DNA of 64,000 nucleotides from Cytophagales bacterium (GCA_046152935.1 JBJXGB010000222.1:1648-65647); one strand, 5' to 3'. Counted from the first letter of the stretch, positions 41,605 to 64,000 are shown. The notes: generated by a model not told the origin, from the letters alone. Made by a program: numbers and translations.

Positions 41605-41707
41605 CTATGTGAATATTTTTAAGTGACAATTAAATATCAAATGCTATTGATAGGTTGTTAAATTTTTCGAGTGTGAATCAAACCATTCAAAGCAAACTAG
41701 TATTTTT

Positions 41708-43102: not shown

Positions 43103-43205
43103 GTATTTTATATTTCAATTATTTTGATTTGAAATTGGTTTTTATAGGTCTTTGCATATTTTACAAGTAATTGATCTTCAATATCTTACATATCAAAATA
43201 CCAAC

Positions 43206-44888: not shown

Positions 44889-45047
44889 TTGGTAAAGTTT
44901 ATAATTAAATAGTCCATATCCTTCAATGAGAAAAACTACGAAATATGATTATTAAATCTAGTAAAAACTGAATATAAACACAATTTTAATTAATTGCGAT
45001 TCAAAACCAACTTATTTATGTCAATCAAATGATTTATTAATGATTTA

Positions 45048-47102
45048 TTAACCTTGACCCAAAAATTTGCGCATAAACCACTCTGTGGCCACTAGGCAGA
45101 TCAAAACGAGAAGCAATATTTTGAAATTTATCACCTCTTCGTTGCTCTCTATTTGATAAACTTTATTGTTCGAGCCTAAGCCCTCAAAATCAACTGCTAA
45201 ATTTTTCATTTGCCTGAAATCGTAATGCTTTGCATTTGTTTTATTGGCTATATTTCTCAACAATTCAAAATCGGCAATTTTAGTGTTGCTTTCCAAATCG
45301 AGATCTTGAATGCTAAATTCTCCTTTTATGCTGAGTTCTTTGCCAGATAAAATGGTCTTGCAAGTGTAGGTGTACAGCCCAGCCTTCAAACCAGTAAGTT
45401 CGAAATTGGGATTGCTGACAGAATTGCTAAATTTGAAATTAAGTATTTTTTTGCTTTCGTCTTTTAAAGTGAGATCAAAGTTTTGGTCGAAAATAGGCTG
45501 GTAAATATCGTTGTAAGTTTCTATTTTGAACACTACAGGTACGTTTTGCTCATATCTCTTCTCGGTGGTATTGCATCTGAACTTCCTTTTGTCTGTCTTT
45601 TGGGCAAGTAAGGTGCTTACTTTCTTTATAAAATCATCAAATACAACCGTGTTTTTGTTTTCGGCAAACTCATTCATGCGCCATTGCCATATTCCTTCGC
45701 CAAAAAACACGCCATATTTTTTGCCCTCCTCTACAAAGATGGCAAGCAATGGTTTTTCAGTTGCAATTGTACCCACTTTTTGTTTCAGAATAATATTCCA
45801 GCCCGATCCAAGATTGTATTCGCCAAAAGGCACCACCAGAGGCGGGCTTTTATCTAAAAACGAAGCCAAACCCTGATCGAAATTCAAACTGGTGTATGAA
45901 GGATTTAATATGGCCGAAACTTTGTCGAACTGGCCAGCGGGCGATAAAATTTTGACATTGGGAATTTGCAAGTTAGCCGTTTGCAAATTGGTATTACTCC
46001 CCACTATATAAAGGATTGGTGTGTTGCTTTTTTCAAAAGAATTTAAAATTGCGTTGAACGAACCAGCGAGACCAGGCAACTGATAGGCTATTATCAAATC
46101 GAAATTGTCGTTTTTAAACTGATTTATGCCTTCGATAAATGATTGAATTTCAACATTTTCTCCATTATTTAACGAAGACATAATCGCCTTGATATCGGGA
46201 TGAGGTGCAGCAGCCAAAAGTGCAATTTTTTGTTTGGCTTCGATCACGTCAAAATAAATGTCTTTTTGATTGTTTTTAATCGAAAATTCGCCTTTGATGG
46301 CATCGGCAACGATGGTGTAGTGCTTCAAACCTGCTTCATTTTCAATATTTTCAAAAGCCAAAGCGACTGAATATTCATCATTCACAATATTGATAGTTTG
46401 CGTGTTTATCTTTTTTTTCTCAGCATAAATAGAAACCGAAGCCCTTTTTCCCTTCAAATTATATGCTTTGATCTCAATATTTATGGGGAATTTATTGCCT
46501 TTGCCCACAATATTGTTGAAAACACAATTTTTGACAACCAAATCTTTTGGCTTTGTGGTATCGCCAATGCCCACTGTAAATACTGGACAATTGAAAGTAT
46601 TGAACAATGGAGAAGTGCCCTTATTTACAATCCCATCTGTAAAAAGTACAACGCCCTTTAAATCGCTAGATTCGAGGCTATTATCCACAAAACTAAAAAG
46701 TGAAGATATATCAGTTTCGGCTTTGTCAAATTTCAAATCTTTGAGCAAAGTACCTGAAAATAAGCCATCTAAGGTGAAAATTTTAACATCAAATCTGTCA
46801 CCCAATTGGTCTCTAATCTTTTCAATATTGGCTATAAACACCTCTGAATTAGCTTCTAAGGCGTCTTTTACCGAGGTAGAATTGTCTAAGGCGATGACAA
46901 AAGTAGATTTTTCGGTAACGATACTCTTCGATTTGATAAATGGCGTGAGCAACATAAACACCATGATCGAAACGGTGAAAAAGCGAAGTGTCGCCATCGC
47001 AATATTGGTTCTGGTACTCCAAGACGATTGTTTATGATACAGTAAAAAAGCAAAAACGAAGCCCGAAAAAACAGAAATGGCAATGATAACAAACGTATTC
47101 AA
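45048..47102 (-). CDS. membrane-anchored von Willebrand factor A (VWA) domain protein (BatA-like N-terminal double TM)
   Basis: Two N-terminal TM helices. MIDAS-type motif VIALDNSTS and VVLFTDGIVNKG. C-terminal TM anchor ending ...ATEWFMRKFLGQG. TTG start. Confidence 0.6.
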   Translation of the reverse strand: MNTFVIIAISVFSGFVFAFLLYHKQSSWSTRTNIAMATLRFFTVSIMVFMLLTPFIKSKSIVTEKSTFVIALDNSTSVKDALEANSEVFIANIEKIRDQLGDRFDVKIFTLDGLFSGTLLKDLKFDKAETDISSLFSFVDNSLESSDLKGVVLFTDGIVNKGTSPLFNTFNCPVFTVGIGDTTKPKDLVVKNCVFNNIVGKGNKFPINIEIKAYNLKGKRASVSIYAEKKKINTQTINIVNDEYSVALAFENIENEAGLKHYTIVADAIKGEFSIKNNQKDIYFDVIEAKQKIALLAAAPHPDIKAIMSSLNNGENVEIQSFIEGINQFKNDNFDLIIAYQLPGLAGSFNAILNSFEKSNTPILYIVGSNTNLQTANLQIPNVKILSPAGQFDKVSAILNPSYTSLNFDQGLASFLDKSPPLVVPFGEYNLGSGWNIILKQKVGTIATEKPLLAIFVEEGKKYGVFFGEGIWQWRMNEFAENKNTVVFDDFIKKVSTLLAQKTDKRKFRCNTTEKRYEQNVPVVFKIETYNDIYQPIFDQNFDLTLKDESKKILNFKFSNSVSNPNFELTGLKAGLYTYTCKTILSGKELSIKGEFSIQDLDLESNTKIADFELLRNIANKTNAKHYDFRQMKNLAVDFEGLGSNNKVYQIESNEEVINFKILLLVLICLVATEWFMRKFLGQG

Positions 47103-52139: not shown

Positions 52140-55100
52140 ATGAATTCTATTTTAAAAAGAGTTCTTGAGATAGATGATAAAGAAGTAACCCCAGTATTGC
52201 TACTTCTGGCAAACTCATTTTTTATAGGGGTATTTATCGTGAGCTACGATGTCGCGGCAAACACGATTTTCCTCAACACGTTTGGTACCGAATATTTAAC
52301 ACGTATTCCCATATTTTCCGGAGCTTTGGGCATGATTTCCACCTCAATTTTTGCATATTTTCAACGAAGATTGCCATTTACACGCCTCACTCTATATTGC
52401 TTTAGCATTATTACCATCATAGTAGCCGCACTTTTTTTTGGGCTAGAATTTTACGACAGTCGTGCTTTGAAATTCGTTTCCTATTTACTTTTAGGTCCAA
52501 TCAATACCATTTTTATTCTGTGTTTTTATGGTACAGTTTCTCGTTCTTTCTCATTAAAAAGAGAGCGACACATGACAGGTACGGTAGATCAGGGCCAGAT
52601 GATCGCTACTGCTATCGCCTATTTCACGATTCCACTCGTTTCAGGCATTGTAGTTGATATTACAAAATTTTTCATTGCCAGCGTCATTAGTGGATCGTTA
52701 GCATTCGTGTTCATGTTTATTTTTCTGGTAAAATATGGCATAAATGCCCAACTAGAACGCAGTATCACCCATAATCAACGAGCGAGCAACACAGAATTGG
52801 CCGCCAGCCCTTACGTGCGGATGCTTGCTATGGTGTTTTTTGGCTCAGTACTGGCCACTATCTTTTTAGAGTATTCGTTCCTTACCGTAACAGTCGAAAA
52901 ATACAAAGACCAAGATTCTTTGGCCAGTTTTTTGGGTATTTATGGTGGATTGGTGACGGTATTTAGTGTGATCTTACAGACTTTCGTGGCCGATAGGGTC
53001 ATAAAATTGTATGGGATGAAAATATCTTTGATTTTAATTCCTAGCATATTGGGGCTATTTGCCATCTTGGCATCTTTAATTGGCACGTTTTTTGGCTACA
53101 CGGCCAACGATTCCAGTTTTATTCTCTTCTTTTTGTTTATGGCCATGAGCAAGTTATTTCTTCAATCGCTCAAGGAAGCATTTGAAGATCCTATTGTTAA
53201 AAACTTGTTTATCCCACTCGATTCAAAAAAACGCTACGATATTCAAACCAAAATAGAAGGCTTTTTCAAAGAATTTTCTGGTTTCATTGCAGGTACACTT
53301 CTCACGATTGTCAGTTATTTCAGTTTTGTAAATTTAATTTTTTACTCATATTTCCTTGCTGCTATATGTGCATTCTATTTTTATGTAGTAATAAGGCTGT
53401 TCGTTGAATATCGAAAAAACCTCACAGAAGCCTTGTTGAAGCAACAAGGCAAAGAAGCTGAAAGCGATAAGAAAGAATACGAAGTTACTGATGTACTAAT
53501 AAAAGAGTTGGAAACTGGCAATGTGAATACAATTATTTACACGCTCAAATTACTAGAAAAAATAGAGCCCATCATGGCTGAAGGTCGATTTACAAAATAC
53601 CTGAACGATCAAAACAAAGACCTGAGACAATATTCATTGCTTAGGCTTGAATCAAATAGAGCACTTAAAGCAATTGAAGAAATAACAAAACTAGAAGCCA
53701 GAGAAAACGACCCAGAAATAAAGTTGCTTGCCAGCAAAGCGCTAAAGGAATTAAACAACACCGACAGGGTAGAAATTGGTCATTTAATGACGTACACTTT
53801 GGTAAAATCAAAAAAGGTAGAAACTAGGATATATGCTGCGAGGCTCATTGCCAAAACTACAGAAGATGCTTATTTGCCCCAATTAATGCTTCTTTTGCGA
53901 GATTTGGACCCGAAAGTACGCTTTGCGGCCATGATATCTTCGGCACAAATGCAAAGAACAGAGACCTGGCCCATATTAATAGAATACCTATCTTCTTACA
54001 CATTTTGCAATGTTTCGGCTGCCGCTCTCATTACCTTTGGCGAATTGGTATTGCCTGCACTTGAAGCAGCATTTTATAAAACCAATCAATCGGCTACTAT
54101 TCAAGAAAAAATAGTGCAGATATATGGCAGAATTCAGGGCGATAAAGTGATCTCTCTGCTTTGGAATAAGATTGATTTTCCCGACAAAAAGATAGTAAAT
54201 AATGTTTTATTGTGTTTGAGTAGTTGCGGTTTTAGGCCAGAAGGCGATCGTATTGTGCGTATAAAACAGCAAATCGAGTCTGAAATTGGTAATTCGGCTT
54301 GGAACATTGCAGCCCTTACCGAAATACCGCAAACTGAAGAAACCATATTGCTAAAACAAGCATTGGAAGAGGAGATAGCCTTTAATTTCGAGAACATTTA
54401 TATGCTATTGGCTTTGATATACGATTCTCAAGCCATCAAATTAGTGAAAGACAATATTGAATCTGGCACCGTAGAGGGGTTGGTATATGCAATAGAGCTA
54501 ATCGATGTGTTTATGGCAGAGGAATTGAAACCTATATTTCTGCCATTGATAGAAGACATCTCGCAATCGGAGCGCACAGAAAGATTGCAAGGGAGCTTTC
54601 CAAGGCAAAAACTTGACAGCATTGAAGTGCTAAAACAAATCATCAACCGAGATTATAATAAAGTAAATAAATGGACCAAAGCCTGTGCCATGTATTGCTA
54701 CGCAAATATGCAAGAATCTGAAATGTGCGATGATCTTACGGCCAATTTATTCAACCCCGACCCCTTATTAAGAGAAATATCTGCTTGGTCGATCGTTAAG
54801 AAAGATTATTACAGCTACAAACAAAATTCGAATCGATTGGTAGAAAATATAAGAAAAGAGCTTGATTCACAATTTTTAAATGCCACCCATGATGAAAACG
54901 AGCCTAGAAAACAATTGAGCAGAATTGAAAAAATATTTTTCCTAAAAGAGCTTCCGGCTTTTAAAAATGTTCCGGGTGTTATTTTGGTAGAGTTTGTAGA
55001 GCTAATTGAAGAGGTGATAATAAAAAAAGATGCGGTAATTCTGGATTTTGGCGCTACCGGACAGTCGCCACTTTATATTATTGTAAAGGGAAACGCAGAG

Positions 55101-55364
55101 GTAAAAAGCGAATCTGGCGAAATCATTACAATCATTGGCGAAAAGGAAATGATAGGAGAAATGCTAATACTCGATACCGACCACAACCATCACGAAATTA
55201 TTGCCTCAGAAGATTGCATTCTATTTAAAATAGACAAAGACCGATTTCTGGAGCAAATCACTGATAATTTTGAAATTGCAAAAGAATTAATCCAAGTAAT
55301 TTCTTCAAAATTCAAAGCCATAGAAGAAATAAAGATAGAATCGAAAGAAGTGTTTGAAAGCTAA
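52140..55364 (+). CDS. polytopic membrane protein: 12-TM transporter-like domain + HEAT/ARM-like repeats + C-terminal cyclic-nucleotide-binding-like domain
   Basis: 12 hydrophobic helices in aa 1-425. HEAT-like repeats in aa ~450-900 (LRDLDPKVRFAAMISSAQ, ENDPEIKLLASKALKEL, NPDPLLREISAWSIVKK). CNB-like beta-roll in aa 926-1055 (FLKELPAFKNVPG...IIGEKEMIGEMLIL...). Confidence 0.7.
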   Translation: MNSILKRVLEIDDKEVTPVLLLLANSFFIGVFIVSYDVAANTIFLNTFGTEYLTRIPIFSGALGMISTSIFAYFQRRLPFTRLTLYCFSIITIIVAALFFGLEFYDSRALKFVSYLLLGPINTIFILCFYGTVSRSFSLKRERHMTGTVDQGQMIATAIAYFTIPLVSGIVVDITKFFIASVISGSLAFVFMFIFLVKYGINAQLERSITHNQRASNTELAASPYVRMLAMVFFGSVLATIFLEYSFLTVTVEKYKDQDSLASFLGIYGGLVTVFSVILQTFVADRVIKLYGMKISLILIPSILGLFAILASLIGTFFGYTANDSSFILFFLFMAMSKLFLQSLKEAFEDPIVKNLFIPLDSKKRYDIQTKIEGFFKEFSGFIAGTLLTIVSYFSFVNLIFYSYFLAAICAFYFYVVIRLFVEYRKNLTEALLKQQGKEAESDKKEYEVTDVLIKELETGNVNTIIYTLKLLEKIEPIMAEGRFTKYLNDQNKDLRQYSLLRLESNRALKAIEEITKLEARENDPEIKLLASKALKELNNTDRVEIGHLMTYTLVKSKKVETRIYAARLIAKTTEDAYLPQLMLLLRDLDPKVRFAAMISSAQMQRTETWPILIEYLSSYTFCNVSAAALITFGELVLPALEAAFYKTNQSATIQEKIVQIYGRIQGDKVISLLWNKIDFPDKKIVNNVLLCLSSCGFRPEGDRIVRIKQQIESEIGNSAWNIAALTEIPQTEETILLKQALEEEIAFNFENIYMLLALIYDSQAIKLVKDNIESGTVEGLVYAIELIDVFMAEELKPIFLPLIEDISQSERTERLQGSFPRQKLDSIEVLKQIINRDYNKVNKWTKACAMYCYANMQESEMCDDLTANLFNPDPLLREISAWSIVKKDYYSYKQNSNRLVENIRKELDSQFLNATHDENEPRKQLSRIEKIFFLKELPAFKNVPGVILVEFVELIEEVIIKKDAVILDFGATGQSPLYIIVKGNAEVKSESGEIITIIGEKEMIGEMLILDTDHNHHEIIASEDCILFKIDKDRFLEQITDNFEIAKELIQVISSKFKAIEEIKIESKEVFES

Positions 55365-55378
55365 TAATAAAATCGGAG

Positions 55379-56860
55379 ATGAATTTTACATTTGATATAT
55401 ACATAAGCTATGCTTTAAAAGATAATCACCAAACTGACTCTCAAGCAGGATGGGTGAGTAATTTTCAGCGTTTTTTAGAAACTCTCATCTTTCAAATTAT
55501 GGGCGAAAAGCCTAGTTTTCTAAATTATGAAAGCCAAGAAAAACCTGCAAAATCAGAATTAGTAAAAGTGGCGGTGTTTGTATGCATTGTTTCGCCAGAA
55601 TATGTAAAAAGCGAGTCTTCGATCGAAGAGATAGACGACTTTTTCAATATAGCCAACACCAACGGAAATCTATTCGTCAATGGCAAAGAAAGGGTACTTA
55701 AGGTAGTGAAATTTCCAGTTCCAATGCTAGAGCAGCCGACTAAAGTAGCGAATCTATTGGAATACGATTTGTATCAAACCGATAGTATCACTGGACAGCC
55801 TAATGAATTTGTAGATTTTTTCAATATTGAAGCTCAAAGAAAATATTGGCTAAAAATAGTAGACTTAGCTTACGATATTTCTGCGATCTTAAAATCAAAT
55901 CGGAAGCGTAGCGTAGCTCAACAAGACTATTCGATTTACAACGAAAAAAATGTGTATTTAGCAGAATCCGGCTTTGATTTACAACTACATAGAGATAGCA
56001 TCAAACGCGAACTTACCAGACATGGTTTCCGTGTTTTGCCCGACCACGCCTTGCCCACAAATCTGTTAGAACTTGAATTAGCCATCAAAAAAGACATCGA
56101 ACGCTCGAGGCTTTCCATACATTTGGTTGGCGATAGCTATGGTGAATATGCGCCCACATCTCCCAAATCAATACTAGAAATTCAGAATAAACTGGCTGGT
56201 GATCACAGCATTATTTCATCTGGCTCTGCAAACAGTAGATTTAGCCGTCTGATCTGGATTTCGCCCGATGCAAAACTCGACAATGACAAGCAAAAAATGT
56301 TTATCGATAATTTGAGGCGAGATCTTGAAGCCAATGAAGGAGCTGAAATACTTCAGTCGCCCATTGAAGACTTCAAAATGGTGGTTTTAGGAGAATTACT
56401 AGATTTGAACATTGAAAAATTAAAAAGGGAAACCATTTTGAGTGGTCAAATTAACCAAGACAAAAAAAACATTTATCTTATATTTGACAATGTAGATCGG
56501 ATTGAAGCTCAGAAAATAGCCGATTTTTTAAATTACAAGGGCTATCAAACAATATTGCCTTCTTTTGAAGGCGAACTTTTAGAATTGAGAGAAATTCATC
56601 TCAATAATTTGAAACAATGCGATGCAGCCCTCATCTACATTGATAAAGTAAATGATTTGTGGGTACAAATGAAATTTTTAGATTTGCTAAAAGCACCTGG
56701 ACTAGGCCGTACAAAACAAGAGCTATTCAAAGCCCTTGTTTTAGGCAAAGATGTCAAAAATAGAGCTGGAGATTTGAATAAATTCGATGCCCCAGTATTT
56801 GAAATAAACGACAATATTGAAAATTCATTAGCCGGATTTATCAAAGAATTTGCACTATGA
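55379..56860 (+). CDS. protein with an N-terminal TIR-like domain followed by two further TIR/flavodoxin-like modules
   Basis: FDIYISYALKD...W...VAVFVCIVSPEYVKSESSIEEI fits the bacterial TIR pattern (D[IV]FISY..D; S..Y..S.....E). Internal repeats KNVYLAESGFD...GFRVLPD and KNIYLIFDNVD...GYQTILP. Confidence 0.65.
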   Translation: MNFTFDIYISYALKDNHQTDSQAGWVSNFQRFLETLIFQIMGEKPSFLNYESQEKPAKSELVKVAVFVCIVSPEYVKSESSIEEIDDFFNIANTNGNLFVNGKERVLKVVKFPVPMLEQPTKVANLLEYDLYQTDSITGQPNEFVDFFNIEAQRKYWLKIVDLAYDISAILKSNRKRSVAQQDYSIYNEKNVYLAESGFDLQLHRDSIKRELTRHGFRVLPDHALPTNLLELELAIKKDIERSRLSIHLVGDSYGEYAPTSPKSILEIQNKLAGDHSIISSGSANSRFSRLIWISPDAKLDNDKQKMFIDNLRRDLEANEGAEILQSPIEDFKMVVLGELLDLNIEKLKRETILSGQINQDKKNIYLIFDNVDRIEAQKIADFLNYKGYQTILPSFEGELLELREIHLNNLKQCDAALIYIDKVNDLWVQMKFLDLLKAPGLGRTKQELFKALVLGKDVKNRAGDLNKFDAPVFEINDNIENSLAGFIKEFAL

Positions 56861-59800
56861 CACCTGAAATAAATACCAACCAAGACGTAGCCAAGCAAAA
56901 GCTGGTAAAAAATCACAGCAACCCATTCCCAGGCCTGCGACCATTTAGCATGGACGAAAGCCATTTATTCTTTGGGCGAGAAGGGCAAAGCGATGAAGTT
57001 TTGAGGAAAATCTCTGAAAATAAATTCGTAGCTGTCATTGGCTCGTCTGGCAGCGGAAAGTCGTCTTTTATATATTGTGGCGTAATACCAATATTATATG
57101 GTGGTTTTCTTACAAAAATTGGCACTAATTGGGACGTAATCGTTACCAGACCAGGCGGTGGCCCAATCGACAACTTAGCCGAATCTATAGCCAAAAAAGA
57201 TAAAAATTACAGTTCACTCACTAGAGAGGAAAAAACCTTACAAAAAACCATCACTTCTACGCTTCTAAGAAGCAGCTCCTTGGGCATAACGGAAGCGGTG
57301 AGTAAATACACCGAGACTGAGAACACCAATATATTGTTAATAGTCGATCAATTTGAAGAATTATTTCGTTTCAAAAAGAATGAGGAAAACGAAGGAAGCA
57401 GTGAATCATTGGCGTATGTAAATCTTTTGGTAGATGCGGTACAAAATGCAGGAAACCACATATATGTAGCAGCCACAATGCGATCCGATTTTATAGGCGA
57501 ATGTGCTCAATTTCCACAACTTACAAGACTTATCAATCAAAGTAATTACCTTATTCCTCAAATGACGAGGGAACAAAAACGCTCAGCAATATTTGGGCCA
57601 GTTTCTGTTGGTGGAGCTAAAATTACACCTCGTCTTTTGCAACAAATATTAGGCGATCTGGGCGACAATCCCGATCAATTGCCGATCATGGCGCACTCAT
57701 TGATGAGGACTTGGGATTACTGGCAAACAAATAAAGAAGACAATGAGCCAATGGATTTACCTCATTATGAGGCCATTGGCACTATGTCGGGTGCACTTTC
57801 TCAACATGCCAATGAAGCATACGATGAGCTAAATGCCCGTGAGAAAGAAATCTGTGCCATTCTTTTTAAATGCTTAACAGAAAAAACTGGTGATTCTGAT
57901 GGCATTCGCAGACCAACTCGGGTAAATGTGATCTCGAAAATTGCCAATTGCACAGATGATGAAATAATAAATATCGTTGAGGTTTTTCGTAAGCCAGGTC
58001 GGTCGCTCATCATGCCACCTTTTGGTGTAAATCTTTCACCAAATTCGATAGTCGATATTTCGCACGAATCTTTAATGCGAATATGGGTACGACTCAAAAA
58101 CTGGGTTGATGAAGAAGGGCAAGCCGTAGAAATGTATTTACGACTTTCAGATGCTGCTTCCAAATACCAAACTGGAAAATCTGGAATGTGGAGACCACCA
58201 GATTTGCAATTGGCTTTAAATTGGCAAGAAAAGAATATTCCGACATTGGAATGGGCTGTGAGATACAACCCTGCTTATGAAAGAACGATGGTTTTTCTTG
58301 AAACAAGTAAGAAAGCCTTTGAAACAGAGCAGAAAGTAAAAGAGGAACAGCAACGTAAAAGATTGGCTCAAGCCACTCGCACGGCCCTTTTTCTAGGGGT
58401 GCTTACCGTATTGGCGTTGGTAGCATTTGTGTATTCGTTTATATTGAAAATTGAGGCAGACAAACAAACAGGCCTTGCAAAAGAAAGCCAATTACAAGCA
58501 ATAAAACAATCTAAACTGGCCACAAAAAATGCCAAATTAGCTGAAGAGCAACGGATAATTGCCTCTGCAAAAGAAAAAGAAGCAGTTTTGCAATCAGAAG
58601 AAGCCAAGCACCAAAAAGAATTGGCTTTGGTAGCTGCCGATGAGGCGAATTTGCAAAAATCTTTTGCTCAAAAAAGCTTAGTAAGAGCCAACGTGCAAAC
58701 CAAAATTGCTGAAGAACAGAAAGCATTGGCTCTATTAAATGAGCAGAAAGCCAAAGATTCGCAAATAAAGGCAGAAAGAGCCCAAACTGACGCCTCAAGA
58801 CAACGTTTTTTATCTATTGCACAAGCCATGTCCGTGAAATCTTTGCAGATTTTAGATACCACGACCAAAGTGCTGGTGGCTCAACAAGCGTTCAAATACA
58901 ACCGAGATTTTAAAGGAAATCCACACAGCCACGATGTATACGATGGCTTGTATTACGCTACAAAATTTCTTTTTCACGACAATCATAATAGCCTAAAAGG
59001 CCATTCGGATGCTGTGAGAGGTGTGGTATTCGCTCCAAATGGAGATTTGTACACCGCAGGAAGCGATGGAAAAGTACTAAAATGGAGCATGGAAAATGGG
59101 ATATATAAAAGTGTATTATTCCATAAAAATTCCTTTATCAACAGAAATATCATAATCAGCAGCAACGGCAAATGGCTGGCTTTGGTTGGCGAAGCACCAT
59201 TTATACAACTGTTTGATTTATCAAACCCAAACAGCAAGCCCAAAAAGCTGTATGGGCATAAAGGACAAATCTGGACAGCTACTTTCATGCCTGACAACCA
59301 AAATTTGGTTTCAATTGGTTCTGATAGTTCTATTCTGATGCGAAATTTGGATACTGACAAATATTTTTTAGTAGCTAAAACGAGCACAAAAGTCAAAACA
59401 CTAGCTACCAGTTCTGTTGGCAATTATATAGCAGGTGGCGATGAAATCGGCAATATTTTTGTTTGGGATGTTGGCAAAACGAAAGCCCCAATGGTAATTA
59501 CATCAAAAAACCTTAAGAAAATACAATCTCTATCTATTAGTCTGGATGGTAAATATTTGGCAGCTGGCGATGAACATGGTTTGGTGAAAATATGGGACGC
59601 ATTCGATAACTTCAAATTGACAGCCAACCTTACAGGCCACCGATCTCGCATTAATGATTTAAAATTTGACCCAAAAAGTGAAGTTCTAGCAACAGCCAGC
59701 TTCGATGGAAGCGTAAGAATGTGGGATTTAGATCACTTAAACGAGCAGCCAATTACACTTCGAGATCACAATTCTTGGGTTTGGTCCGTAGCTTTTACAG

Positions 59801-60006
59801 GCGATGGTCTAAACATAGTAACAGGCTGTGTAGATAATTTAATCAGAATTTATCCGACCAATGCAGAATCTATGGCCGATAAAATATGCTCGAAATTAAA
59901 ACGCAACATGACACCTGCCGAATGGACTGCCTATGTAGCCAAGGATATTAGCTTTGAAGAAACATGCCCAGGATTGCCTCAAGGTAGAAATCAAGAATTG
60001 GAATAG
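56857..60006 (+). CDS. STAND-type P-loop NTPase - single TM helix - coiled coil - WD40 repeat protein
   Basis: NPFPGLRPFSMDESHLFFGRE + Walker A GSSGSGKSS (57040-57063) + Walker B ILLIVDQFEELF. TM helix TALFLGVLTVLALVAFVYSFIL (58381-58446) preceded by RKR..R. ~125-aa A/K/E/Q coiled coil. At least 6 WD40 repeats (GHSDAVRGVVF...GSDGKVLKW; GHRSRINDLKF...SFDGSVRMWD). The ATG overlaps the upstream stop (ATGA). Confidence 0.8.
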   Translation: MTPEINTNQDVAKQKLVKNHSNPFPGLRPFSMDESHLFFGREGQSDEVLRKISENKFVAVIGSSGSGKSSFIYCGVIPILYGGFLTKIGTNWDVIVTRPGGGPIDNLAESIAKKDKNYSSLTREEKTLQKTITSTLLRSSSLGITEAVSKYTETENTNILLIVDQFEELFRFKKNEENEGSSESLAYVNLLVDAVQNAGNHIYVAATMRSDFIGECAQFPQLTRLINQSNYLIPQMTREQKRSAIFGPVSVGGAKITPRLLQQILGDLGDNPDQLPIMAHSLMRTWDYWQTNKEDNEPMDLPHYEAIGTMSGALSQHANEAYDELNAREKEICAILFKCLTEKTGDSDGIRRPTRVNVISKIANCTDDEIINIVEVFRKPGRSLIMPPFGVNLSPNSIVDISHESLMRIWVRLKNWVDEEGQAVEMYLRLSDAASKYQTGKSGMWRPPDLQLALNWQEKNIPTLEWAVRYNPAYERTMVFLETSKKAFETEQKVKEEQQRKRLAQATRTALFLGVLTVLALVAFVYSFILKIEADKQTGLAKESQLQAIKQSKLATKNAKLAEEQRIIASAKEKEAVLQSEEAKHQKELALVAADEANLQKSFAQKSLVRANVQTKIAEEQKALALLNEQKAKDSQIKAERAQTDASRQRFLSIAQAMSVKSLQILDTTTKVLVAQQAFKYNRDFKGNPHSHDVYDGLYYATKFLFHDNHNSLKGHSDAVRGVVFAPNGDLYTAGSDGKVLKWSMENGIYKSVLFHKNSFINRNIIISSNGKWLALVGEAPFIQLFDLSNPNSKPKKLYGHKGQIWTATFMPDNQNLVSIGSDSSILMRNLDTDKYFLVAKTSTKVKTLATSSVGNYIAGGDEIGNIFVWDVGKTKAPMVITSKNLKKIQSLSISLDGKYLAAGDEHGLVKIWDAFDNFKLTANLTGHRSRINDLKFDPKSEVLATASFDGSVRMWDLDHLNEQPITLRDHNSWVWSVAFTGDGLNIVTGCVDNLIRIYPTNAESMADKICSKLKRNMTPAEWTAYVAKDISFEETCPGLPQGRNQELE

Positions 60007-60042: not shown

Positions 60043-61110
60043 ATGTCAATTCGTATTTTCAAAAAAGCAATTCAATACATGTTGCCATTCGTAGTGTTTG
60101 CTTCTTCCGCACAAATCCCACTTAAAAGTTCGTGTAGTCAAAAGCTAAAGGAGATGCAAAAAAACTATGAGCAAGGCATTTTATCCACCATAGCAAACGA
60201 TTTGGAAGATTGTATGTTTGACGGATTTACAAAAACCGAAAAATTGCAAGGCTATAGGCTCATTATTCTTTCTTATTTGTTTCTTGATGAGAACAGAAAT
60301 GCCGAGAAAAAAATGAACGAGTTGTTGGTATATGAGCCTGATTACCAACCAAATAAAGCTTTAGATCCGGTTGAATATGTAAAACTTTACGAATCTTTCA
60401 ATGTATTGCCCAATATTTCGTTTGGCGTAAGTATAGGTGCGAATCAAAGTGCTGTAAATGCTGGATCGACCTACGGAGTTGGAAATACGGAGGTCATTCC
60501 AGTAAAATTTACTGGTGGAATTGGCTTAAATTTTGGCGTTTGTGCAGATTTACTTCTCTATAAAAATCTATTCTTGACTGTTGAAGGATATTATACAACA
60601 AAAAACTTTAGTTCTAAGCAACCCATTCTTAACTCCTCAGAACTCAATACCACCGAAAGTCAAACATCTATTAGCACTCCGCTCACCTTAAAATACTCAA
60701 TTGGCACCCGAAAAATAAGATTTTTTGTGCGATCAGGCTTTTCATTAGATTACTTACTAAGCTCTCAAAACGAATTGATAAGAAAAAACATTATTACAGA
60801 CCAAAACGACTTTGCGGGAGCCAGTATAAGTATGGATAGTCAAAGAAATAAAATTAACTTTTCGGCAGTATTTGGGGGTGGCATTACCTACAAATTAGGG
60901 TACGGTTTTGCCTTCATCGATGCTAGGTATTTGTACGGCCTCACCAATTATTCTAATTCAAAAGTTAGATATAATTTTTTCGACACCCAAGTCACTAATT
61001 ATGGCTATGTCGACCCAGATTTTGGATTAAATAATGTTCAGTTGAGTATAGGATATATGTATTCTCTCTATAAAGTAAAGAAGAAAAAAAGTAATTTTAT
61101 CATTGATTAA
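60043..61110 (+). CDS. outer-membrane beta-barrel protein with N-terminal helical (TPR-like) domain
   Basis: Signal peptide (MLPFVVFASSAQ). ~95-aa helical region. Then alternating beta-strand pattern typical of small OM barrels (FGVSIGANQS, GGGITYKLGYGFAFIDARYLYGL, LSIGYMYSL). Confidence 0.6.
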   Translation: MSIRIFKKAIQYMLPFVVFASSAQIPLKSSCSQKLKEMQKNYEQGILSTIANDLEDCMFDGFTKTEKLQGYRLIILSYLFLDENRNAEKKMNELLVYEPDYQPNKALDPVEYVKLYESFNVLPNISFGVSIGANQSAVNAGSTYGVGNTEVIPVKFTGGIGLNFGVCADLLLYKNLFLTVEGYYTTKNFSSKQPILNSSELNTTESQTSISTPLTLKYSIGTRKIRFFVRSGFSLDYLLSSQNELIRKNIITDQNDFAGASISMDSQRNKINFSAVFGGGITYKLGYGFAFIDARYLYGLTNYSNSKVRYNFFDTQVTNYGYVDPDFGLNNVQLSIGYMYSLYKVKKKKSNFIID

Positions 61111-61111
61111 T

Positions 61112-62386
61112 ATGCGATTATCTTTATTCAACAAATCATCGATTTGCCTTTTAATATTTTTTTCAATCGTCAATTTTGTGGGCTGCAATAGAATTGATGT
61201 ATCTCCCAATCTATCGAAAGCGTTCATAAAATTTTATGGGGGAAATGGCTCAGAAATTTCTTCTAAAATGCTGCTGTTGAACGATGGTTCTTTCTTGATG
61301 CTGGGCACAAGCTCCTCTTTCAACACAAATGACACAACAGATATTTATTTGGTGAAATCCAATGACAAAGGCAATAAAATTTGGGAAAAAAACTATGGCA
61401 ATGGTCTTTTTGAAATCGCAGAGGTAATACGCAAATCGACCGACAATACGGTGGTGATGCTTGGCACTTCTGGCGATGTAGCCACAGGAAATGCAAGCAT
61501 TTATCTTGCTAAAATCAACCCAAACGATGGTGCATTGGTTTGGCAAAAAACATTAAAAAACAACAACAAAAGTACATACGGTTATGATCTTTCTGTTGAT
61601 GCCAGTGGTTCAATATTTGTGGTGGGTGCTACGGACACGCTTACGAATATTGGCCTGTTGAAAAATGTATATATCACCAAATTAAATGCAGACGGTTCGG
61701 AAAATAACACCATTCCTACCCTAGGGCTAGATAGCAGAAATAATCTTGCTAGAAACATTATTGACATCAATGGCAATGAGGTTTCTTGCTTGGTAAATAC
61801 CACTATTTCTGTTGATGTAAACGGCTCTCCACAGACACAAGCTTCCCCTATTTTTGTAAATATTAAGCTTGATGTTGGTCGAGCTACATTGCAAGTAAAC
61901 AAAAGCTCGCCACAAATCGGTGAATTGAGCATACAAAATGCTAACCAGATGAAAAAAACAGCTGATGGGGGTTACATCGTAGTGGGCTCCTGTATAAAAA
62001 ACGGAGTCAAAAATATGTATTTACTCAAATTGGATAAGGATTTTAACAAAACTGACGGCAAAGGTTGGTTTCAGTTTTATAGTGATGAGGGCGATAGTGA
62101 AGGCTTAAATGTGATCCAATGCACTGATGGGGGCTATGCGGTTTGTGGCACTACCTTTTCGAATACTTTTAATAATAATATTGCACTGCTTCGTACCAAT
62201 GCCAATGGCGATGCATTGTTTATGAAAAATTATGGCGGAACTGGCAATGATTTGGGGACAGATATTACCCAAACAAACGATGGTGGATTTGCCATTTTGA
62301 GCACCATAGAATTATTAAATTCACCACAAAACAGGCCCGTGATGTCGCTCCTAAAGACCAATGCCAATGGTAATTTAGAAAACTAA
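61112..62386 (+). CDS. lipoprotein built from ~6-7 beta-propeller-like repeats
   Basis: Lipobox NFVGC. Repeats of the form [DG]G[GS][FY].[IV].G.T......D.[YL]L.K.N..G...W (e.g. DGSFLMLGTSSS...DIYLVKSNDKGNKIW; DGGYAVCGTTFS...IALLRTNANGDALF). ATG 1 nt after the upstream stop. Alternative TTG at 61103. Confidence 0.6.
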   Translation: MRLSLFNKSSICLLIFFSIVNFVGCNRIDVSPNLSKAFIKFYGGNGSEISSKMLLLNDGSFLMLGTSSSFNTNDTTDIYLVKSNDKGNKIWEKNYGNGLFEIAEVIRKSTDNTVVMLGTSGDVATGNASIYLAKINPNDGALVWQKTLKNNNKSTYGYDLSVDASGSIFVVGATDTLTNIGLLKNVYITKLNADGSENNTIPTLGLDSRNNLARNIIDINGNEVSCLVNTTISVDVNGSPQTQASPIFVNIKLDVGRATLQVNKSSPQIGELSIQNANQMKKTADGGYIVVGSCIKNGVKNMYLLKLDKDFNKTDGKGWFQFYSDEGDSEGLNVIQCTDGGYAVCGTTFSNTFNNNIALLRTNANGDALFMKNYGGTGNDLGTDITQTNDGGFAILSTIELLNSPQNRPVMSLLKTNANGNLEN

Positions 62387-62424
62387 TGTCATCGTTTCAA
62401 GACTCAAATCAAAATAGTATATCC

Positions 62425-64000
62425 ATGAAAATAAAATTAACTTTATTATTTCAGGTATTTGCCCTCTTTATTTTTTTTTGTTGCCAAGGTCAAATCAATG
62501 TTTCACCTGCTACTGGAGGGATAAATATTTGTACTGGTTCGGTCGCAACTCTTTCGAATATTACAATTACAGCATCTAATATAAATGATTTTAATAATGG
62601 TTCGAACACCAACGATGATGGCTACAAATTATTTTTGCCAACGGGTTTCATTTTTGCTGAAGTGCCAGCTGTCACTACCATATCTGGCTCTACTAATATT
62701 GAAATAGATTATGGATATGTAGGTACAGTTACATCATCTACATTTCGATTTAGATATTCTACTTCGGGTTCAGTTGCAGTAAATGACGGTTTTGTCATTT
62801 CAAATATAAAAGTATTGTCTACCTCTGCTGGATTTGGTTTTATTACAAGAATTAATGATGGTCTGTTAAACAACGATGCGACTGTAACAGGAAGTTATGG
62901 CATAAATTATGGTTTGCTTTCAAGTATCAACACACCGAATTTAACGCCAATAGTAGCTAATGCATCAGTCTGCGGGGCAGATTTGATTAGTTTTGTACCC
63001 AACACAGTGTCAGGAGTTAGCTACAATTTTTACACGATGAGCAATAATTTGGTGGCCATGAATGCTACCTCTTACTCAAAAACCTATGCGAATGGTGTAG
63101 TTGAGAGCTTTCAAATTGCGCCAGTTTCTGGAATCTGCCAAGCAAATAATAGTCTTTGGGCTACCGTTACTGGCACTTCCTTCAATGTACCTTCTGCACC
63201 GTCTGCAGCAAACACCACTAGCCAATTAAGCGTATGCGAAGGTTCGGGGTCAAATCCTACACTGTCTGTCACGGGCGGAACATTATTCAACTGGTACGCA
63301 GATCAGAATCTCACTATTTTACTTGGGTCATCTTCTGGTGGCTACATTCCTTCACCTGCAATCATTACGTCAGCTGCGGGTGCAAATTTCGACTATTATG
63401 TCACTAGCAAGCAAGGAGATTGCGAAAGTCCTTCGAGAAAAATATCAGTAACGGTAACAGATGTGCCTAGCTTTTTGATTACAAATTTGTCATCGAGCTA
63501 TTGTGCTAGTTCTCAATCTATTACGATAAATGCATTCCCAACTATTTCAGGTGCAAATGGCATATTTACTGCTACAAAACTTTCGGGACCAGGAAATATT
63601 TCAAATTTTTTAACTTTTACTGGCGGTAATTATAGCGTATCACCTGCCAATGTCACAGGATTAAGTTCAACTACTGGCACAAATATAAATTTGATATATA
63701 CTGTAACTGTAAATGGATGTGTTTCAACTGCTTCAAATACTACCAATATATTTGCTTTGCCATCTGTAGATTTTGTTTTGCCAAGTAGCCCTACTCTTGG
63801 TTTAATTAGGGATACTGACCCTCCTTTCTCATTGGTAGGAAGCCCTGCAGATGGTAGTTTTGCAGGAACTGGTGTTGCAGGCAATGATTTTGACGTACGA
63901 TTATTAACAACTGGTACTTACACAGTTACGTACACTGCCAGCTTAAATGGATGTACAAACAGTATCAACAAAAACATTACTGTAGTAACCAATACAGGCA
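62425..64000 (+). CDS. large secreted cell-surface protein with Cys-containing Ig-like repeats, 5' part (runs off the right edge)
   Basis: Own translation: MKIKLTLLFQVFALFIFFCCQGQINVSPATGG..., open to position 64000. Recurring units with C.G/NGC and '...WY' (LSVCEGSGSNPTLSVTGGTLFNWYAD...GDCESPSRKISVTV). These resemble Ig-like repeats of Cytophaga-type gliding/T9SS adhesins. Confidence 0.6.
   Translation, partial: MKIKLTLLFQVFALFIFFCCQGQINVSPATGGINICTGSVATLSNITITASNINDFNNGSNTNDDGYKLFLPTGFIFAEVPAVTTISGSTNIEIDYGYVGTVTSSTFRFRYSTSGSVAVNDGFVISNIKVLSTSAGFGFITRINDGLLNNDATVTGSYGINYGLLSSINTPNLTPIVANASVCGADLISFVPNTVSGVSYNFYTMSNNLVAMNATSYSKTYANGVVESFQIAPVSGICQANNSLWATVTGTSFNVPSAPSAANTTSQLSVCEGSGSNPTLSVTGGTLFNWYADQNLTILLGSSSGGYIPSPAIITSAAGANFDYYVTSKQGDCESPSRKISVTVTDVPSFLITNLSSSYCASSQSITINAFPTISGANGIFTATKLSGPGNISNFLTFTGGNYSVSPANVTGLSSTTGTNINLIYTVTVNGCVSTASNTTNIFALPSVDFVLPSSPTLGLIRDTDPPFSLVGSPADGSFAGTGVAGNDFDVRLLTTGTYTVTYTASLNGCTNSINKNITVVTNTG

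Follow-up and report, generated by a model that had tools for sequence, protein, structure and literature searches.

A probable divergent NTT-type transporter with HEAT repeats and a degenerate cyclic-nucleotide-binding domain at the head of a STAND-encoding operon in Cytophagales

The first gene of an operon in the window, the whole 64,000-nt stretch of Cytophagales DNA analysed here, encodes a membrane domain related to NTT transporters, a HEAT solenoid and a C-terminal cyclic-nucleotide-binding (CNB) fold on one polypeptide (Table 1). Its CNB domain has lost the canonical phosphate-binding cassette, its pattern of constraint is the reverse of that in a sister subfamily of the same architecture, and its neighbours are STAND, TIR-like and envelope genes in place of the sister's cyclase and HD genes. 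The best reading of these observations, to which we give a probability of roughly one half, is a regulated transporter whose cyclic-nucleotide (cNMP) input gave way to protein coupling with a STAND module.

Table 1. Coordinates of the NTT-HEAT-CNB gene, its domains and the downstream operon genes, counted from the first letter of the window.
Feature	Position	Strand	Extent	Basis and remarks
NTT-HEAT-CNB gene	52140..55364	+	1074 aa	ATG start; first gene of the operon; ORF, domains, full-length model
Membrane domain, predicted divergent TLC/NTT-type MFS transporter	52140..53429	+	residues 1-430	12 helices (6+6); profile and Foldseek
HEAT/ARM-like solenoid, predicted cytoplasmic	53484..54890	+	residues 449-917	HEAT_2; all-helical model
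CNB-fold domain, degenerate	54915..55313	+	residues 926-1058	beta-roll and C-helices; PF00027, fold matches
Phosphate-binding cassette equivalent, IGEMLILDTDHNHHEIIA	55152..55205	+	residues 1005-1022	Asn1016 at the Arg position
Triple TIR/NDT-like alpha/beta protein, predicted cytoplasmic	55379..56860	+	493 aa	Pfam, model, Foldseek
nSTAND1 NTPase-TM-coiled-coil-WD40 protein	56857..60006	+	1049 aa	4-nt overlap between its start and the preceding stop
Putative outer-membrane beta-barrel protein	60043..61110	+	355 aa	OMP_b-brl_2 in same-position orthologues
Putative lipoprotein	61103..62386	+	427 aa	Cys after a hydrophobic N-terminal segment; orthologues in synteny
Large S/T/N/G-rich secreted surface protein	62425..64000	+		start only; continues past the window end

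The reading frame proposed by a sequence-only reading of this DNA stood, from its ATG start to its full length, and so did all four of that reading's descriptive claims, apart from a detail of cassette coordinate and register described below. The product is a 100% match to P0001, a Cytophagales MAG protein in NCBI. Full-length homologues number 87, and, with a single genome taken for each GTDB species, no fewer than 552 genomes contain relatives; judged by homologue numbers, the three-part architecture is far beyond chance. In JGI annotation, relatives are named in the style of 'ATP:ADP antiporter', and they have TLC/MFS_1 Pfam matches. A family of TLC/NTT-like proteins fused to HEAT repeats, which the sequence-only reading had named, proved to be real: PDB profile matches, a best Foldseek match to AtNTT1 and the published family (PMC5381601) identify the window protein as a member. 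On domain order, with one chain running from an NTT-like domain through HEAT repeats to a cNBD at its C-terminus, it probably belongs to the NTT-HEAT-cNBD fusion clade, and the architecture itself has been described before (Major et al. 2017, PMC5381601). These fusions are monophyletic, broadly bacterial and functionally uncharacterised (Major, Embley & Williams 2017, Genome Biol Evol; PMC5381601), and that data set takes in Bacteroidetes NTT sequences. They resemble the window protein in domain order and size, but cAMP binding or regulation was proposed for the family there and binding was assumed, whereas the cassette of the window subfamily is degenerate throughout, and the STAND/TIR-like/OMP operon that the window gene heads receives no mention (PMC5381601).

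The membrane domain was examined in an AlphaFold2 full-length model built on a 52-sequence alignment (mean pLDDT 83.2, pTM 0.70), which contains 12 long helices, six at residues 13-208 and six at 224-438 around a loop at 209-223, in agreement with the 6+6 layout and central loop claimed earlier. Set against the TLC and MFS families, as had been suggested, the domain matched NTT structures alone in a PDB-wide search with the subfamily profile (AtNTT1, 9j3j, E 4.9e-24; Chlamydia NTT1, 9j3n, E 8.5e-21), and Foldseek placed AtNTT1 first (target-normalised TM 0.71-0.72 vs 0.51-0.62 for other MFS proteins). Pfam run on the window protein alone returned no TLC or other match over this domain; among 20 relatives it returned MFS_1 in 13 and TLC in 2. 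A TLC-like 'PLD' loop motif, common to NTT1, is kept. Profile and model comparison thus identify the domain as a divergent TLC/NTT relative (PF03219, TC 2.A.12). The plastid and chlamydial ATP/ADP translocators NTT1 (PDB 9j3j-9j3o) share the homologous 12-TM fold at only about 14-17% identity, and they lack the cytoplasmic HEAT/CNB extension of the window protein.

Four charged residues of AtNTT1, K155, E245, E385 and K527, are required for ATP/ADP exchange. Mapped through the 9j3j alignment, with the chain numbering shifted by 84, a value deduced from three matching residues, only E385 has a recognisably kept equivalent (Glu244 in the window; column Q30/E24/D19). E245 corresponds to Pro120 in 73 of 74 subfamily sequences, K527 to Gly381 within a variable column (R34/G14/other), and K155 lies where the alignment is poor and has no secure equivalent, Arg55 being a possibility, so that the canonical exchange residues are mostly absent. 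Invariant Gly, Pro, Arg, Lys and Asp residues and TLC/MFS-type motifs are retained, and functional microsporidian NTTs likewise vary at the essential AtNTT1 positions (PMC4256464). The domain may still transport a substrate.

Downstream of the membrane domain, residues 449-917 are modelled entirely as helical repeats and carry a HEAT_2 match (E 9.9e-11), as expected from the HEAT/ARM-like repeats noted at about 450-900. The CNB fold, which had been aligned by eye at residues 926-1055, was confirmed by Pfam cNMP_binding (PF00027, residues 961-1041; E 1.2e-12, 48.1 bits vs a cut-off of 27.5) and by a modelled beta-roll at 956-1031 followed by C-helices; Foldseek comparison of the model superposed it on M. 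tuberculosis CRP (rmsd 2.4 Å over 140 columns) and matched the PKG I CNB domain (TM 0.71, 26% identity). The family CNB profile matches PKG/PKA CNB domains, down to E 6.5e-39. The cassette lies where it had been placed and reads as claimed, with its start set 3 nt late (nt 55155, where 55152 is correct). Loss of the Arg and retention of Gly-Glu (Gly1006-Glu1007) also held, but the register of the replacement was off by one: because profile alignment to PKG/PKA CNB domains lays the canonical Pro-Arg-Ser/Thr-Ala on His1015-Asn1016-His1017-His1018, Asn, not His, replaces the Arg.

The degeneracy extends across the subfamily. None of its 81 members has a canonical cassette or an Arg at the phosphate position, whereas 114 of 118 sister members read FGELALLDPEPRSA and 117 of 118 carry the Arg. 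Among 74 window-subfamily sequences the Arg column is occupied by N38/E7/V6/S5/K3, and the cassette conserves Gly-Glu/Asp and the closing Ala1022 (61/74) and no other residue; Gly-Glu is kept in most members. Across the whole domain, conservation is limited to glycines and core hydrophobic residues. Loss of the Arg does not by itself prove that all ligand binding is lost; the domain has probably ceased to bind cNMP.

Comparison with the sister subfamily (P0085-like; Spirosoma, Dyadobacter, Larkinella, Emticicia and others), which shares architecture and length at about 22% identity to the window protein, disclosed a reversal of constraint. Membrane-domain divergence is equal in the two (0.417 in the window subfamily vs 0.419 in the sister), while pairwise identity in window and sister subfamilies, respectively, is 0.45 vs 0.27 for HEAT and 0.31 vs 0.59 for CNB. 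The sister thus has the CNB most and the HEAT region least conserved; in the window subfamily HEAT is the most constrained region and the CNB the least conserved domain. Among sequences of the TIR-like-linked clade, pairwise identity is 0.64 in HEAT and 56% in the membrane domain but drops to 33% in the cassette. Of the two roles first suggested for the domain, that of a protein-interaction module fits best, given a CNB that is the least conserved domain, a cassette without conserved residues beyond those named and the 33% vs 56% identities. The neighbourhoods differ as well. An HD gene is present in 5/5 sister loci (L087-L091), and a Guanylate_cyc (class III cyclase) gene, fused to a response regulator or TPR repeats, in 4/4 with enough sequence. 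Homologues of the cyclase, HD and kinase genes of L087 are absent from the window, with one weak receiver-domain match (L079) among the 80-odd window-type loci, and no cyclase or HD homologue of the sister locus lies within 10 kb in any of these loci.

Successive intergenic gaps in the window operon measure 14, -4, 36 and -8 nt, the first separating the NTT-HEAT-CNB stop from the TIR-like start. Among the 69 window-type loci with at least 4 kb of downstream sequence, 52 have the STAND gene directly downstream, 40 of them with the TIR-like gene too; the other 12 lack the TIR-like gene and still encode a degenerate CNB. The 17 loci without a STAND neighbour all belong to one paralogue clade, in which the HEAT region is highly conserved, and at least one genome of this kind, Ohtaekwangia kribbensis, encodes a TIR-like protein elsewhere. 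Cytophagales genomes of at least five named families share the gene order and the protein sizes, even where identity is as low as about 32%. The flanks differ and consist of ordinary genes of metabolism and the envelope; in the five operon loci whose annotation was read throughout, neither an integrase nor a transposase is listed. The operon looks vertically inherited, to judge from these sequences, not patchy like defence islands.

In the STAND protein an nSTAND1 domain (E 2.2e-90) is followed by a TM helix at about 506-534; next comes a coiled-coil-like stretch rich in A, K, E and Q, and then a WD40 propeller. No part of the operon is better conserved than the NTPase domain (median 63% identity). 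The single TM helix, kept in the window protein and four orthologues, is Arg/Lys-rich on its N-terminal side, and the propeller would lie in the periplasm. The barrel protein occurs in the operon in 48 loci, although Pfam gave no match on the window copy. A weak PQQ_2/BamB-like match suggests that the lipoprotein is possibly a beta-propeller. Orthologues of the surface protein, present in 5/5 loci annotated that far, span 1600-4800 aa and carry PKD/fn3 domains and Por_Secre_tail (a T9SS cargo signal).

Homologues of the second gene product, about 480 aa in length, number more than 990. Its domain 1 is a weak match to TIR_2, short of the threshold (26.5 bits vs 28), domain 2 just passes that of DUF4062 (24.9 vs 24.7), and domain 3 matches no named family; the model (pLDDT 80) matches the TIR domains of SNC1 (E 7.4e-5, TM 0.62), RUN1 and SARM1 (0.67) as well as NDT/DNPH1, so the neighbour is TIR-like by fold and DUF4062-bearing, as thought. 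DUF4062 proteins have recently been shown to be NADases converting NAD+ to ADPR. Among 38 sequences, the canonical 'CLxEL' position of domain 1 is Glu in 14 (Glu84 in the window) and its neighbour, position 83, is acidic (Glu or Asp) throughout; candidate position 267 of domain 2, in a tentative register, has Asp in 31 sequences and Glu in the remaining 7, the window among the latter. DUF4062-NACHT-WD40 is the TEP1/NWD architecture, and nSTAND1 has been reported in conflict systems. The window genes follow the order of TEP1 and NWD1/2 (DUF4062/TeTIR-NACHT-WD40), that is, DUF4062, STAND NTPase, WD40. They differ from this group, with which the Swarozyc defence system is classed, in that the components are distributed between two genes, nSTAND1 takes the place of NACHT, a TM helix separates NTPase from WD40, the TIR-like domains are three in tandem with no clearly conserved catalytic Glu, and PADLOC gives no match.

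We propose that the NTT-HEAT-CNB protein resides in the inner membrane, where HEAT solenoid and CNB fold would act jointly as the transporter's regulatory appendage. Among its Foldseek matches, SLC9C1, plant SOS1, HCN, CNG and SthK likewise join a membrane transport domain to a C-terminal CNB-fold regulatory domain; in these and in KCNH channels the membrane domains are unrelated and no HEAT solenoid intervenes. The CNB-homology domain of KCNH channels is blind to cNMP and works through protein contacts, and the degenerate CNB may serve, by analogy, as a comparable structural or autoregulatory module. The sister transporter would presumably be gated by a cNMP that the adjacent class III cyclase makes and the adjacent HD enzyme removes. 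In the window subfamily this small-molecule input would have been replaced: the protein, predicted to be co-transcribed with a membrane-anchored nSTAND1 NTPase, would probably be coupled to it physically through the strongly constrained HEAT solenoid, and the STAND module would control the transporter. The WD40 propeller would be set in the periplasm beside the outer-membrane barrel, the lipoprotein and the giant surface protein, with the triple TIR-like protein usually an adaptor or co-factor. Several observations pull against parts of this proposal: the 17 STAND-less loci keep a highly conserved HEAT region, three of the four essential AtNTT1 residues are not conserved, Gly-Glu persists in most cassettes, and, since the TIR-like partner carries DUF4062, an NADase family, a small-molecule link is conceivable.

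That last point underlies a different account, which we consider unlikely, in which the CNB was re-tuned to a product of the TIR-like/DUF4062 protein (ADPR or an isomer) and a STAND-activated NTT-like domain leaks or depletes nucleotides in abortive infection. The TIR/NDT fold and DUF4062 domain of the neighbour, the NADase activity of that family, the TEP1/NWD-like architecture and the presence of nSTAND1 in conflict systems all speak for it. So does the family itself, which offers a generator-plus-receptor precedent because the sister's cyclase, a signal-making enzyme, adjoins a CNB-bearing transporter; and the CNB profile matches PycTIR (8jsk, E 4e-12), to which weak PADLOC matches of the CNB region to TIR-effector models may be added. 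Yet the cassette is least conserved exactly in the TIR-like-linked clade (0.33 vs 0.56 membrane and 0.64 HEAT), conservation of the domain stops at glycines and core hydrophobic residues, and the TIR-like gene is missing from 12 of 52 STAND-linked loci, and the catalytic-position Glu of its product is not clearly conserved. The TIR-derived ligand suggested by the sequence-only reading is thus unsupported and disfavoured. Its defence framing is doubtful too, in view of the fixed gene order and sizes across Cytophagales families, the ordinary flanks and the lack of annotated integrases or transposases in the five loci. PADLOC-DB v2 matched no defence system over the window (Pycsar, Thoeris and Avs-like included), with only weak matches of the CNB region to TIR-effector models and of P-loop fragments to mad3/mad8. 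Pycsar effectors also fuse a CNB to a membrane effector, but Pycsar needs an adjacent pyrimidine cyclase, which neither the window nor the related loci contain, and its effectors carry a short TM module where the window protein has a 12-TM NTT-type transporter.

The membrane domain might instead be a pseudo-transporter, an anchor or scaffold holding the HEAT platform at the inner membrane, where it would help to assemble a trans-envelope STAND/OMP/lipoprotein/adhesin complex. Substitution of the AtNTT1 residues, conservation of HEAT above the membrane domain and the envelope components encoded by the other operon genes would suit such a role, although we hold it improbable: constraint on the domain equals that in the cNMP-linked sister, its motifs and invariant residues are kept, the E385 column stays E, D or Q, and microsporidian NTTs function despite variation at the same positions. 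Further down in plausibility, and a long shot, is a trans-envelope signalling machine conserved in Cytophagales, in which a WD40 propeller in the periplasm, joined through a TolA-like coiled coil to nSTAND1 in the cytoplasm, senses the barrel-lipoprotein-adhesin set; an NAD-derived nucleotide made by the triple TIR-like/DUF4062 protein would then be read by the Arg-less CNB, gating the NTT transporter. We give very little credence to the idea that the CNB still binds cAMP or cGMP non-canonically, in an ordinary cNMP-regulated transporter to which the STAND operon is a mere neighbour. The Pfam score above cut-off, the retained Gly-Glu and the cAMP regulation proposed by Major et al. (PMC5381601) are in its favour; nevertheless, 81/81 lack the Arg by which the cyclic phosphate is contacted, the cassette differs between clades, every sister locus examined has the cyclase/HD type of neighbour that the 80-odd window-type loci lack within 10 kb, and STAND synteny persists to about 32% identity.

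The comparative context of this transporter family, comprising cassette loss, contrasting neighbourhoods and constraint reversal, is apparently undescribed so far. If the signalling-machine reading were true, a STAND/TIR immune-type module would have been swapped in for the ancestral cyclase/cNMP input.

The window protein comprises an N-terminal membrane domain, a helical-repeat region and a C-terminal cyclic-nucleotide-binding (CNB) domain. In an AlphaFold2 model built from 52 homologues (mean pLDDT 83.2, pTM 0.70), six long helices (residues 13–208), a loop (209–223) and six further helices (224–438) form the membrane domain, residues 449–917 constitute an unbroken helical-repeat region, and a beta-roll (956–1031) precedes the C-terminal helices. 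Pfam placed HEAT_2 at residues 554–619 (E 9.9e-11) and cNMP_binding at residues 961–1041 (E 1.2e-12; 48.1 bits, cut-off 27.5), and the N-terminal 430 residues, searched as a single sequence, gave no match in Pfam or NCBIfam; identification of the membrane domain required a 20-sequence profile. The open reading frame, Pfam and the model together bear out the description given in a sequence-only reading (12 TM helices in a 6+6 layout, HEAT repeats, a CNB fold and a phosphate-binding cassette lacking Arg), including the beta-roll on which its CNB assignment depended. An identical protein, P0001 from a Cytophagales MAG, carries the NCBI name 'cyclic nucleotide-binding domain-containing protein'.

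The profile of residues 1–440, searched against all PDB sequences, matched the Arabidopsis plastid ATP/ADP translocator NTT1 (9j3j, E 4.9e-24), followed by Chlamydia pneumoniae NTT1 (9j3n, E 8.5e-21), with other MFS proteins absent from the matches. A Foldseek comparison with TLC and MFS families, suggested on the basis of the sequence, likewise ranked NTT entries first (target-normalised TM 0.71–0.72) and generic MFS transporters lower (0.51–0.62). Several relatives are named 'ATP:ADP antiporter' by JGI, and some have Pfam TLC or MFS_1 matches. The NTT-like plus HEAT family named in the earlier reading is real, in line with published fusions: Major, Embley and Williams (2017) described NTT-HEAT proteins as monophyletic and reported NTT-HEAT-cNBD fusions from both bacteria and oomycetes, with a data set that included Bacteroidetes NTT sequences (PMC5381601). 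NTT-HEAT(-cNBD) proteins are common in free-living bacteria, Chlamydiae and oomycetes, and none was characterised; no function was known for the fusions, for which cAMP control was suggested (PMC5381601). Full-text literature searches found no functional work on NTT-HEAT-cNBD proteins after that study. ATP/ADP exchange by AtNTT1 needs four charged residues, K155, E245, E385 and K527 (PMC4256464), which we located by way of the 9j3j alignment; a numbering offset fixed at 84 recovers E, E and K at chain residues 161, 301 and 443. E245 falls on Pro120 of the window protein (subfamily column P in 73/74), E385 on Glu244 (Q30/E24/D19), K527 on Gly381 (R34/G14/other) and K155, in a weakly aligned region, possibly on Arg55. 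The membrane domain is genuinely homologous to NTTs, but an ATP/ADP antiporter role cannot be taken for granted.

The cassette, IGEMLILDTDHNHHEIIA, occupies residues 1005–1022 (nt 55152–55205). Profile alignment to PKG/PKA CNB domains sets the canonical Pro-Arg-Ser/Thr-Ala on His1015-Asn1016-His1017-His1018, so the Arg is replaced by Asn; its loss had been read correctly from the sequence, in a register one residue off. Arg is absent from 79 of the 80 full-length homologues recovered in the first search, the cassettes of P0077–P0083 being likewise degenerate, and the sole Arg-bearing homologue, P0085 (22% identity), reads FGELALLDPEPRSASATA. Used as a query, P0085 retrieved a large sister subfamily from Spirosoma, Dyadobacter, Larkinella, Emticicia, Fibrisoma and other genera. 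A canonical-cassette regular expression matched 114/118 sister proteins versus 0/81 of the window's subfamily. The sister columns are almost invariant (F-G-E-L-A-L-L-D-x-E-P-R-S-A), and only Gly1006, Glu/Asp1007 and Ala1022 are kept in the window's subfamily. Arg-less CNB domains are not rare across the superfamily.

Domain constraint is reversed between the two subfamilies. Their membrane domains have diverged equally (mean pairwise identity 0.417 in the window's subfamily and 0.419 in the sister), whereas the corresponding values are 0.45 versus 0.27 for HEAT and 0.31 versus 0.59 for CNB. In the window's subfamily, information content is lower for the CNB domain than for the membrane or HEAT domains, and CNB is also the domain least identical to the window protein (median 29%).

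Five same-strand genes trail the transporter gene in the window, with successive gaps of 14, -4, 36, -8 and about 38 nt (see table). Identical gene order was found at loci whose transporter is only 32–35% identical, with nearly constant downstream protein sizes (about 480–493, 1045–1061, 350–358 and 404–412 aa) and flanks that vary by locus; where annotation reaches the end of the operon (five loci), its final gene encodes a 1600–4800-aa PKD/fn3 protein with a T9SS Por_Secre_tail. Chance adjacency was rejected, as synteny holds to about 32% identity. Across the operon, median identity is highest for the NTPase domain (63%), followed by WD40 (32%), the barrel (30%) and the lipoprotein (24.5%). 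With one genome scanned per GTDB species, at least 552 genomes contained relatives; the best 80 of these relatives are all Cytophagales-type and include Cyclobacteriaceae, Fulvivirga, Chryseolinea, Ohtaekwangia, Cytophaga aurantiaca, Rhodocytophaga and Thermonemataceae.

Coordinates of the window genes and of the compared loci
Feature	Span (nt)	Strand	Description
Transporter ORF (window)	52140-55364	+	ATG start, 1074 aa
TIR-like gene (window)	55379-56860	+	493 aa; weak TIR_2 match and DUF4062
STAND gene (window)	56857-60006	+	1049-aa nSTAND1-WD40; nSTAND1 E 2.2e-90
Putative outer-membrane barrel gene (window)	within 60043-64000	+	third downstream, 355 aa; orthologues with OMP_b-brl_2
Putative lipoprotein gene (window)	within 60043-64000	+	fourth downstream, 427 aa; weak BamB/PQQ-like match
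Giant surface protein gene, start (window)	within 60043-64000	+	last operon gene; Ig-like, S/T/N-rich, secreted
Envelope-type gene run (window)	39502-47102	-	upstream of transporter
PD40+OmpA protein (window)	39502-41604	-
DUF5723 protein (window)	41708-43102	-
Large protein (window)	43206-44888	-	lipoprotein-like N-terminus; no Pfam match
Large protein (window)	45048-47102	-	TM segments at both ends; no Pfam match
OmpH/Skp-like chaperone gene, L003	9204-9830		directly upstream of transporter
OmpH/Skp-like chaperone gene, L031	9304-9921		directly upstream of transporter
Sister locus L087	8001-14878
Sister locus L088	8001-14792
Sister locus L089	8001-11833
Sister locus L090	3498-11908
Sister locus L091	5895-11862
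P0080 locus L006	1477-7157		distant relative in a signalling setting

Of the 69 loci that extend 4 kb or more downstream, 40 carry the transporter, TIR-like and STAND genes, 12 carry the transporter and STAND genes separated by a gap too small for another gene, and 17 have neither neighbour. The latter 12 and 17 loci fall in one sequence cluster and look like extra paralogues, since in at least one such genome, that of Ohtaekwangia kribbensis, the TIR-like protein is encoded elsewhere. Two paralogous operons occur in one Flammeovirgaceae MAG, with (L026) and without (L078) the TIR-like gene; a second MAG holds a full operon (L034) and a paralogue whose contig stops at the transporter gene (L038). 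An OmpH/Skp-like chaperone gene adjoins the transporter gene at Roseivirga and Ohtaekwangia loci, and a run of envelope-type genes lies on the opposite strand in the window.

One hydrophobic helix, at about residues 506–534 of the STAND protein, is kept in four orthologues; it is preceded by Arg/Lys-rich sequence and followed by a ~130-residue A/K/E/Q-rich, TolA-like stretch and the WD40 propeller. Because the P-loop domain must be cytoplasmic and a single TM helix lies between, we infer that the coiled coil and propeller are periplasmic, a placement that fits the outer-membrane genes downstream. A periplasmic 'sensor' propeller is unusual for STAND NTPases.

The TIR-like protein is modeled (pLDDT 80) as three tandem TIR/NDT-like beta/alpha domains, the middle one being DUF4062. 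It was recognised by fold search alone: Foldseek returned the SNC1 TIR (E 7.4e-5), the SARM1 TIR (TM 0.67) and nucleoside 2-deoxyribosyltransferase/DNPH1, and PDB sequence searches with 5- and 38-sequence profiles gave nothing significant (best, TLR6 TIR domain, E 0.079). The family has >990 members of near-constant length, with many invariant residues in domains 2 and 3 (YLAExGxD, SIHLIG, W428, K432, D435 and an LLKAPGxG run at 436–443). Two 2026 preprints show DUF4062/TeTIR domains to be NADases with a catalytic Glu and ADPR as product, and TEP1 and NWD proteins to be DUF4062-NACHT-WD40, an architecture that the window operon mirrors, but split over two genes.

The sister loci are arranged differently, and just as uniformly. 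A convergent HD-domain gene lies directly downstream of the transporter in 5/5 loci examined (L087–L091), and a class III nucleotidyl cyclase gene adjoins it in all four with enough sequence (L087, L088, L090 and L091; the L089 contig ends directly after the HD gene). The cyclase is a response-regulator fusion with a histidine kinase gene beside it in Spirosoma and Dyadobacter, and a TPR-repeat fusion in two unrelated metagenomic contigs. These loci look like a compact cNMP-controlled transporter module, apparently uncharacterised. A search with the L087 cyclase, HD and kinase proteins found no homologue of any of them in the window, and the same search of 80-odd window-type loci gave a single weak receiver-domain match, in L079. 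Yet another type of signalling neighbourhood, the third for the family, is seen at L006, where P0080, a more distant relative (26% identity) in which no cassette can be recognised, has a Cache-GAF sensor protein on one side and a LytTR response regulator on the other.

A swap of input is the simplest account of the contrasts in cassette, constraint and neighbourhood. The ancestral type, persisting as the sister subfamily, would be an NTT-like transporter whose HEAT/CNB appendage senses a cNMP that the adjacent cyclase, itself linked to a sensor, makes and that the HD enzyme presumably breaks down. In the window's subfamily, decay of the cassette would have come with relaxed selection on the CNB domain and a much stronger constraint on the HEAT solenoid, and the transporter gene would have been fixed as the first gene of an operon that encodes a STAND NTPase spanning the membrane. 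We therefore favour control through protein–protein coupling, in which HEAT would serve for docking and the CNB fold would be kept in a structural or autoinhibitory role. The sequence-only reading had offered another route, in which the altered CNB domain reads a TIR-derived nucleotide; the DUF4062 NADase work and the generator-beside-receptor arrangement of sister loci lend this some plausibility, but the cassette varies more than any other segment in exactly the clade that has the TIR-like gene as a linked neighbour (identity 0.33; membrane domain 0.56, HEAT 0.64), and a quarter of STAND-linked loci lack that gene. Nor is the catalytic Glu clearly conserved in the TIR-like domains: the domain 1 'CLxEL' position is Glu in only 14/38 sequences, including window Glu84, and candidate position 267 in domain 2, where the register is ambiguous, is Asp in 31/38 and Glu in the window. 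We regard it as quite improbable that the NTT transporter is gated by a STAND/TIR-derived nucleotide signal acting on a re-purposed CNB domain.

A role in abortive infection is not supported, although it stays conceivable because nSTAND1 is known from conflict systems: PADLOC matched no described defence system, and the gene arrangement is invariant, spans a broad range of taxa and sits among housekeeping genes. A mobile defence island was rejected on the housekeeping flanks and the fixed gene order and sizes; the operon loci examined carry no annotated integrase or transposase.

Fusion of these domains has been described before (Major et al. 2017). In the literature searched, the split into cNMP-competent, cyclase-linked and cNMP-blind, STAND-linked subfamilies appears undescribed, as do the reversal of constraint between domains and the trans-envelope make-up of the operon, and no papers linking NTT-HEAT proteins with nSTAND1, TIR or WD40 were found. 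Cultured hosts with relatives include Cytophaga aurantiaca, Fulvivirga species and Agaribacillus aureus. The subfamily contrast offers two testable handles on transporter control, an intact cassette with cyclase and HD genes versus a decayed cassette with a STAND operon. Even if the link were only structural, the result would still warn against annotating these genes as 'cyclic nucleotide-binding' or 'ATP:ADP antiporter'. STAND/TIR-like modules are normally interpreted as immunity, and the fixation of one as a conserved, apparently vertically inherited envelope system would represent an unusual case.
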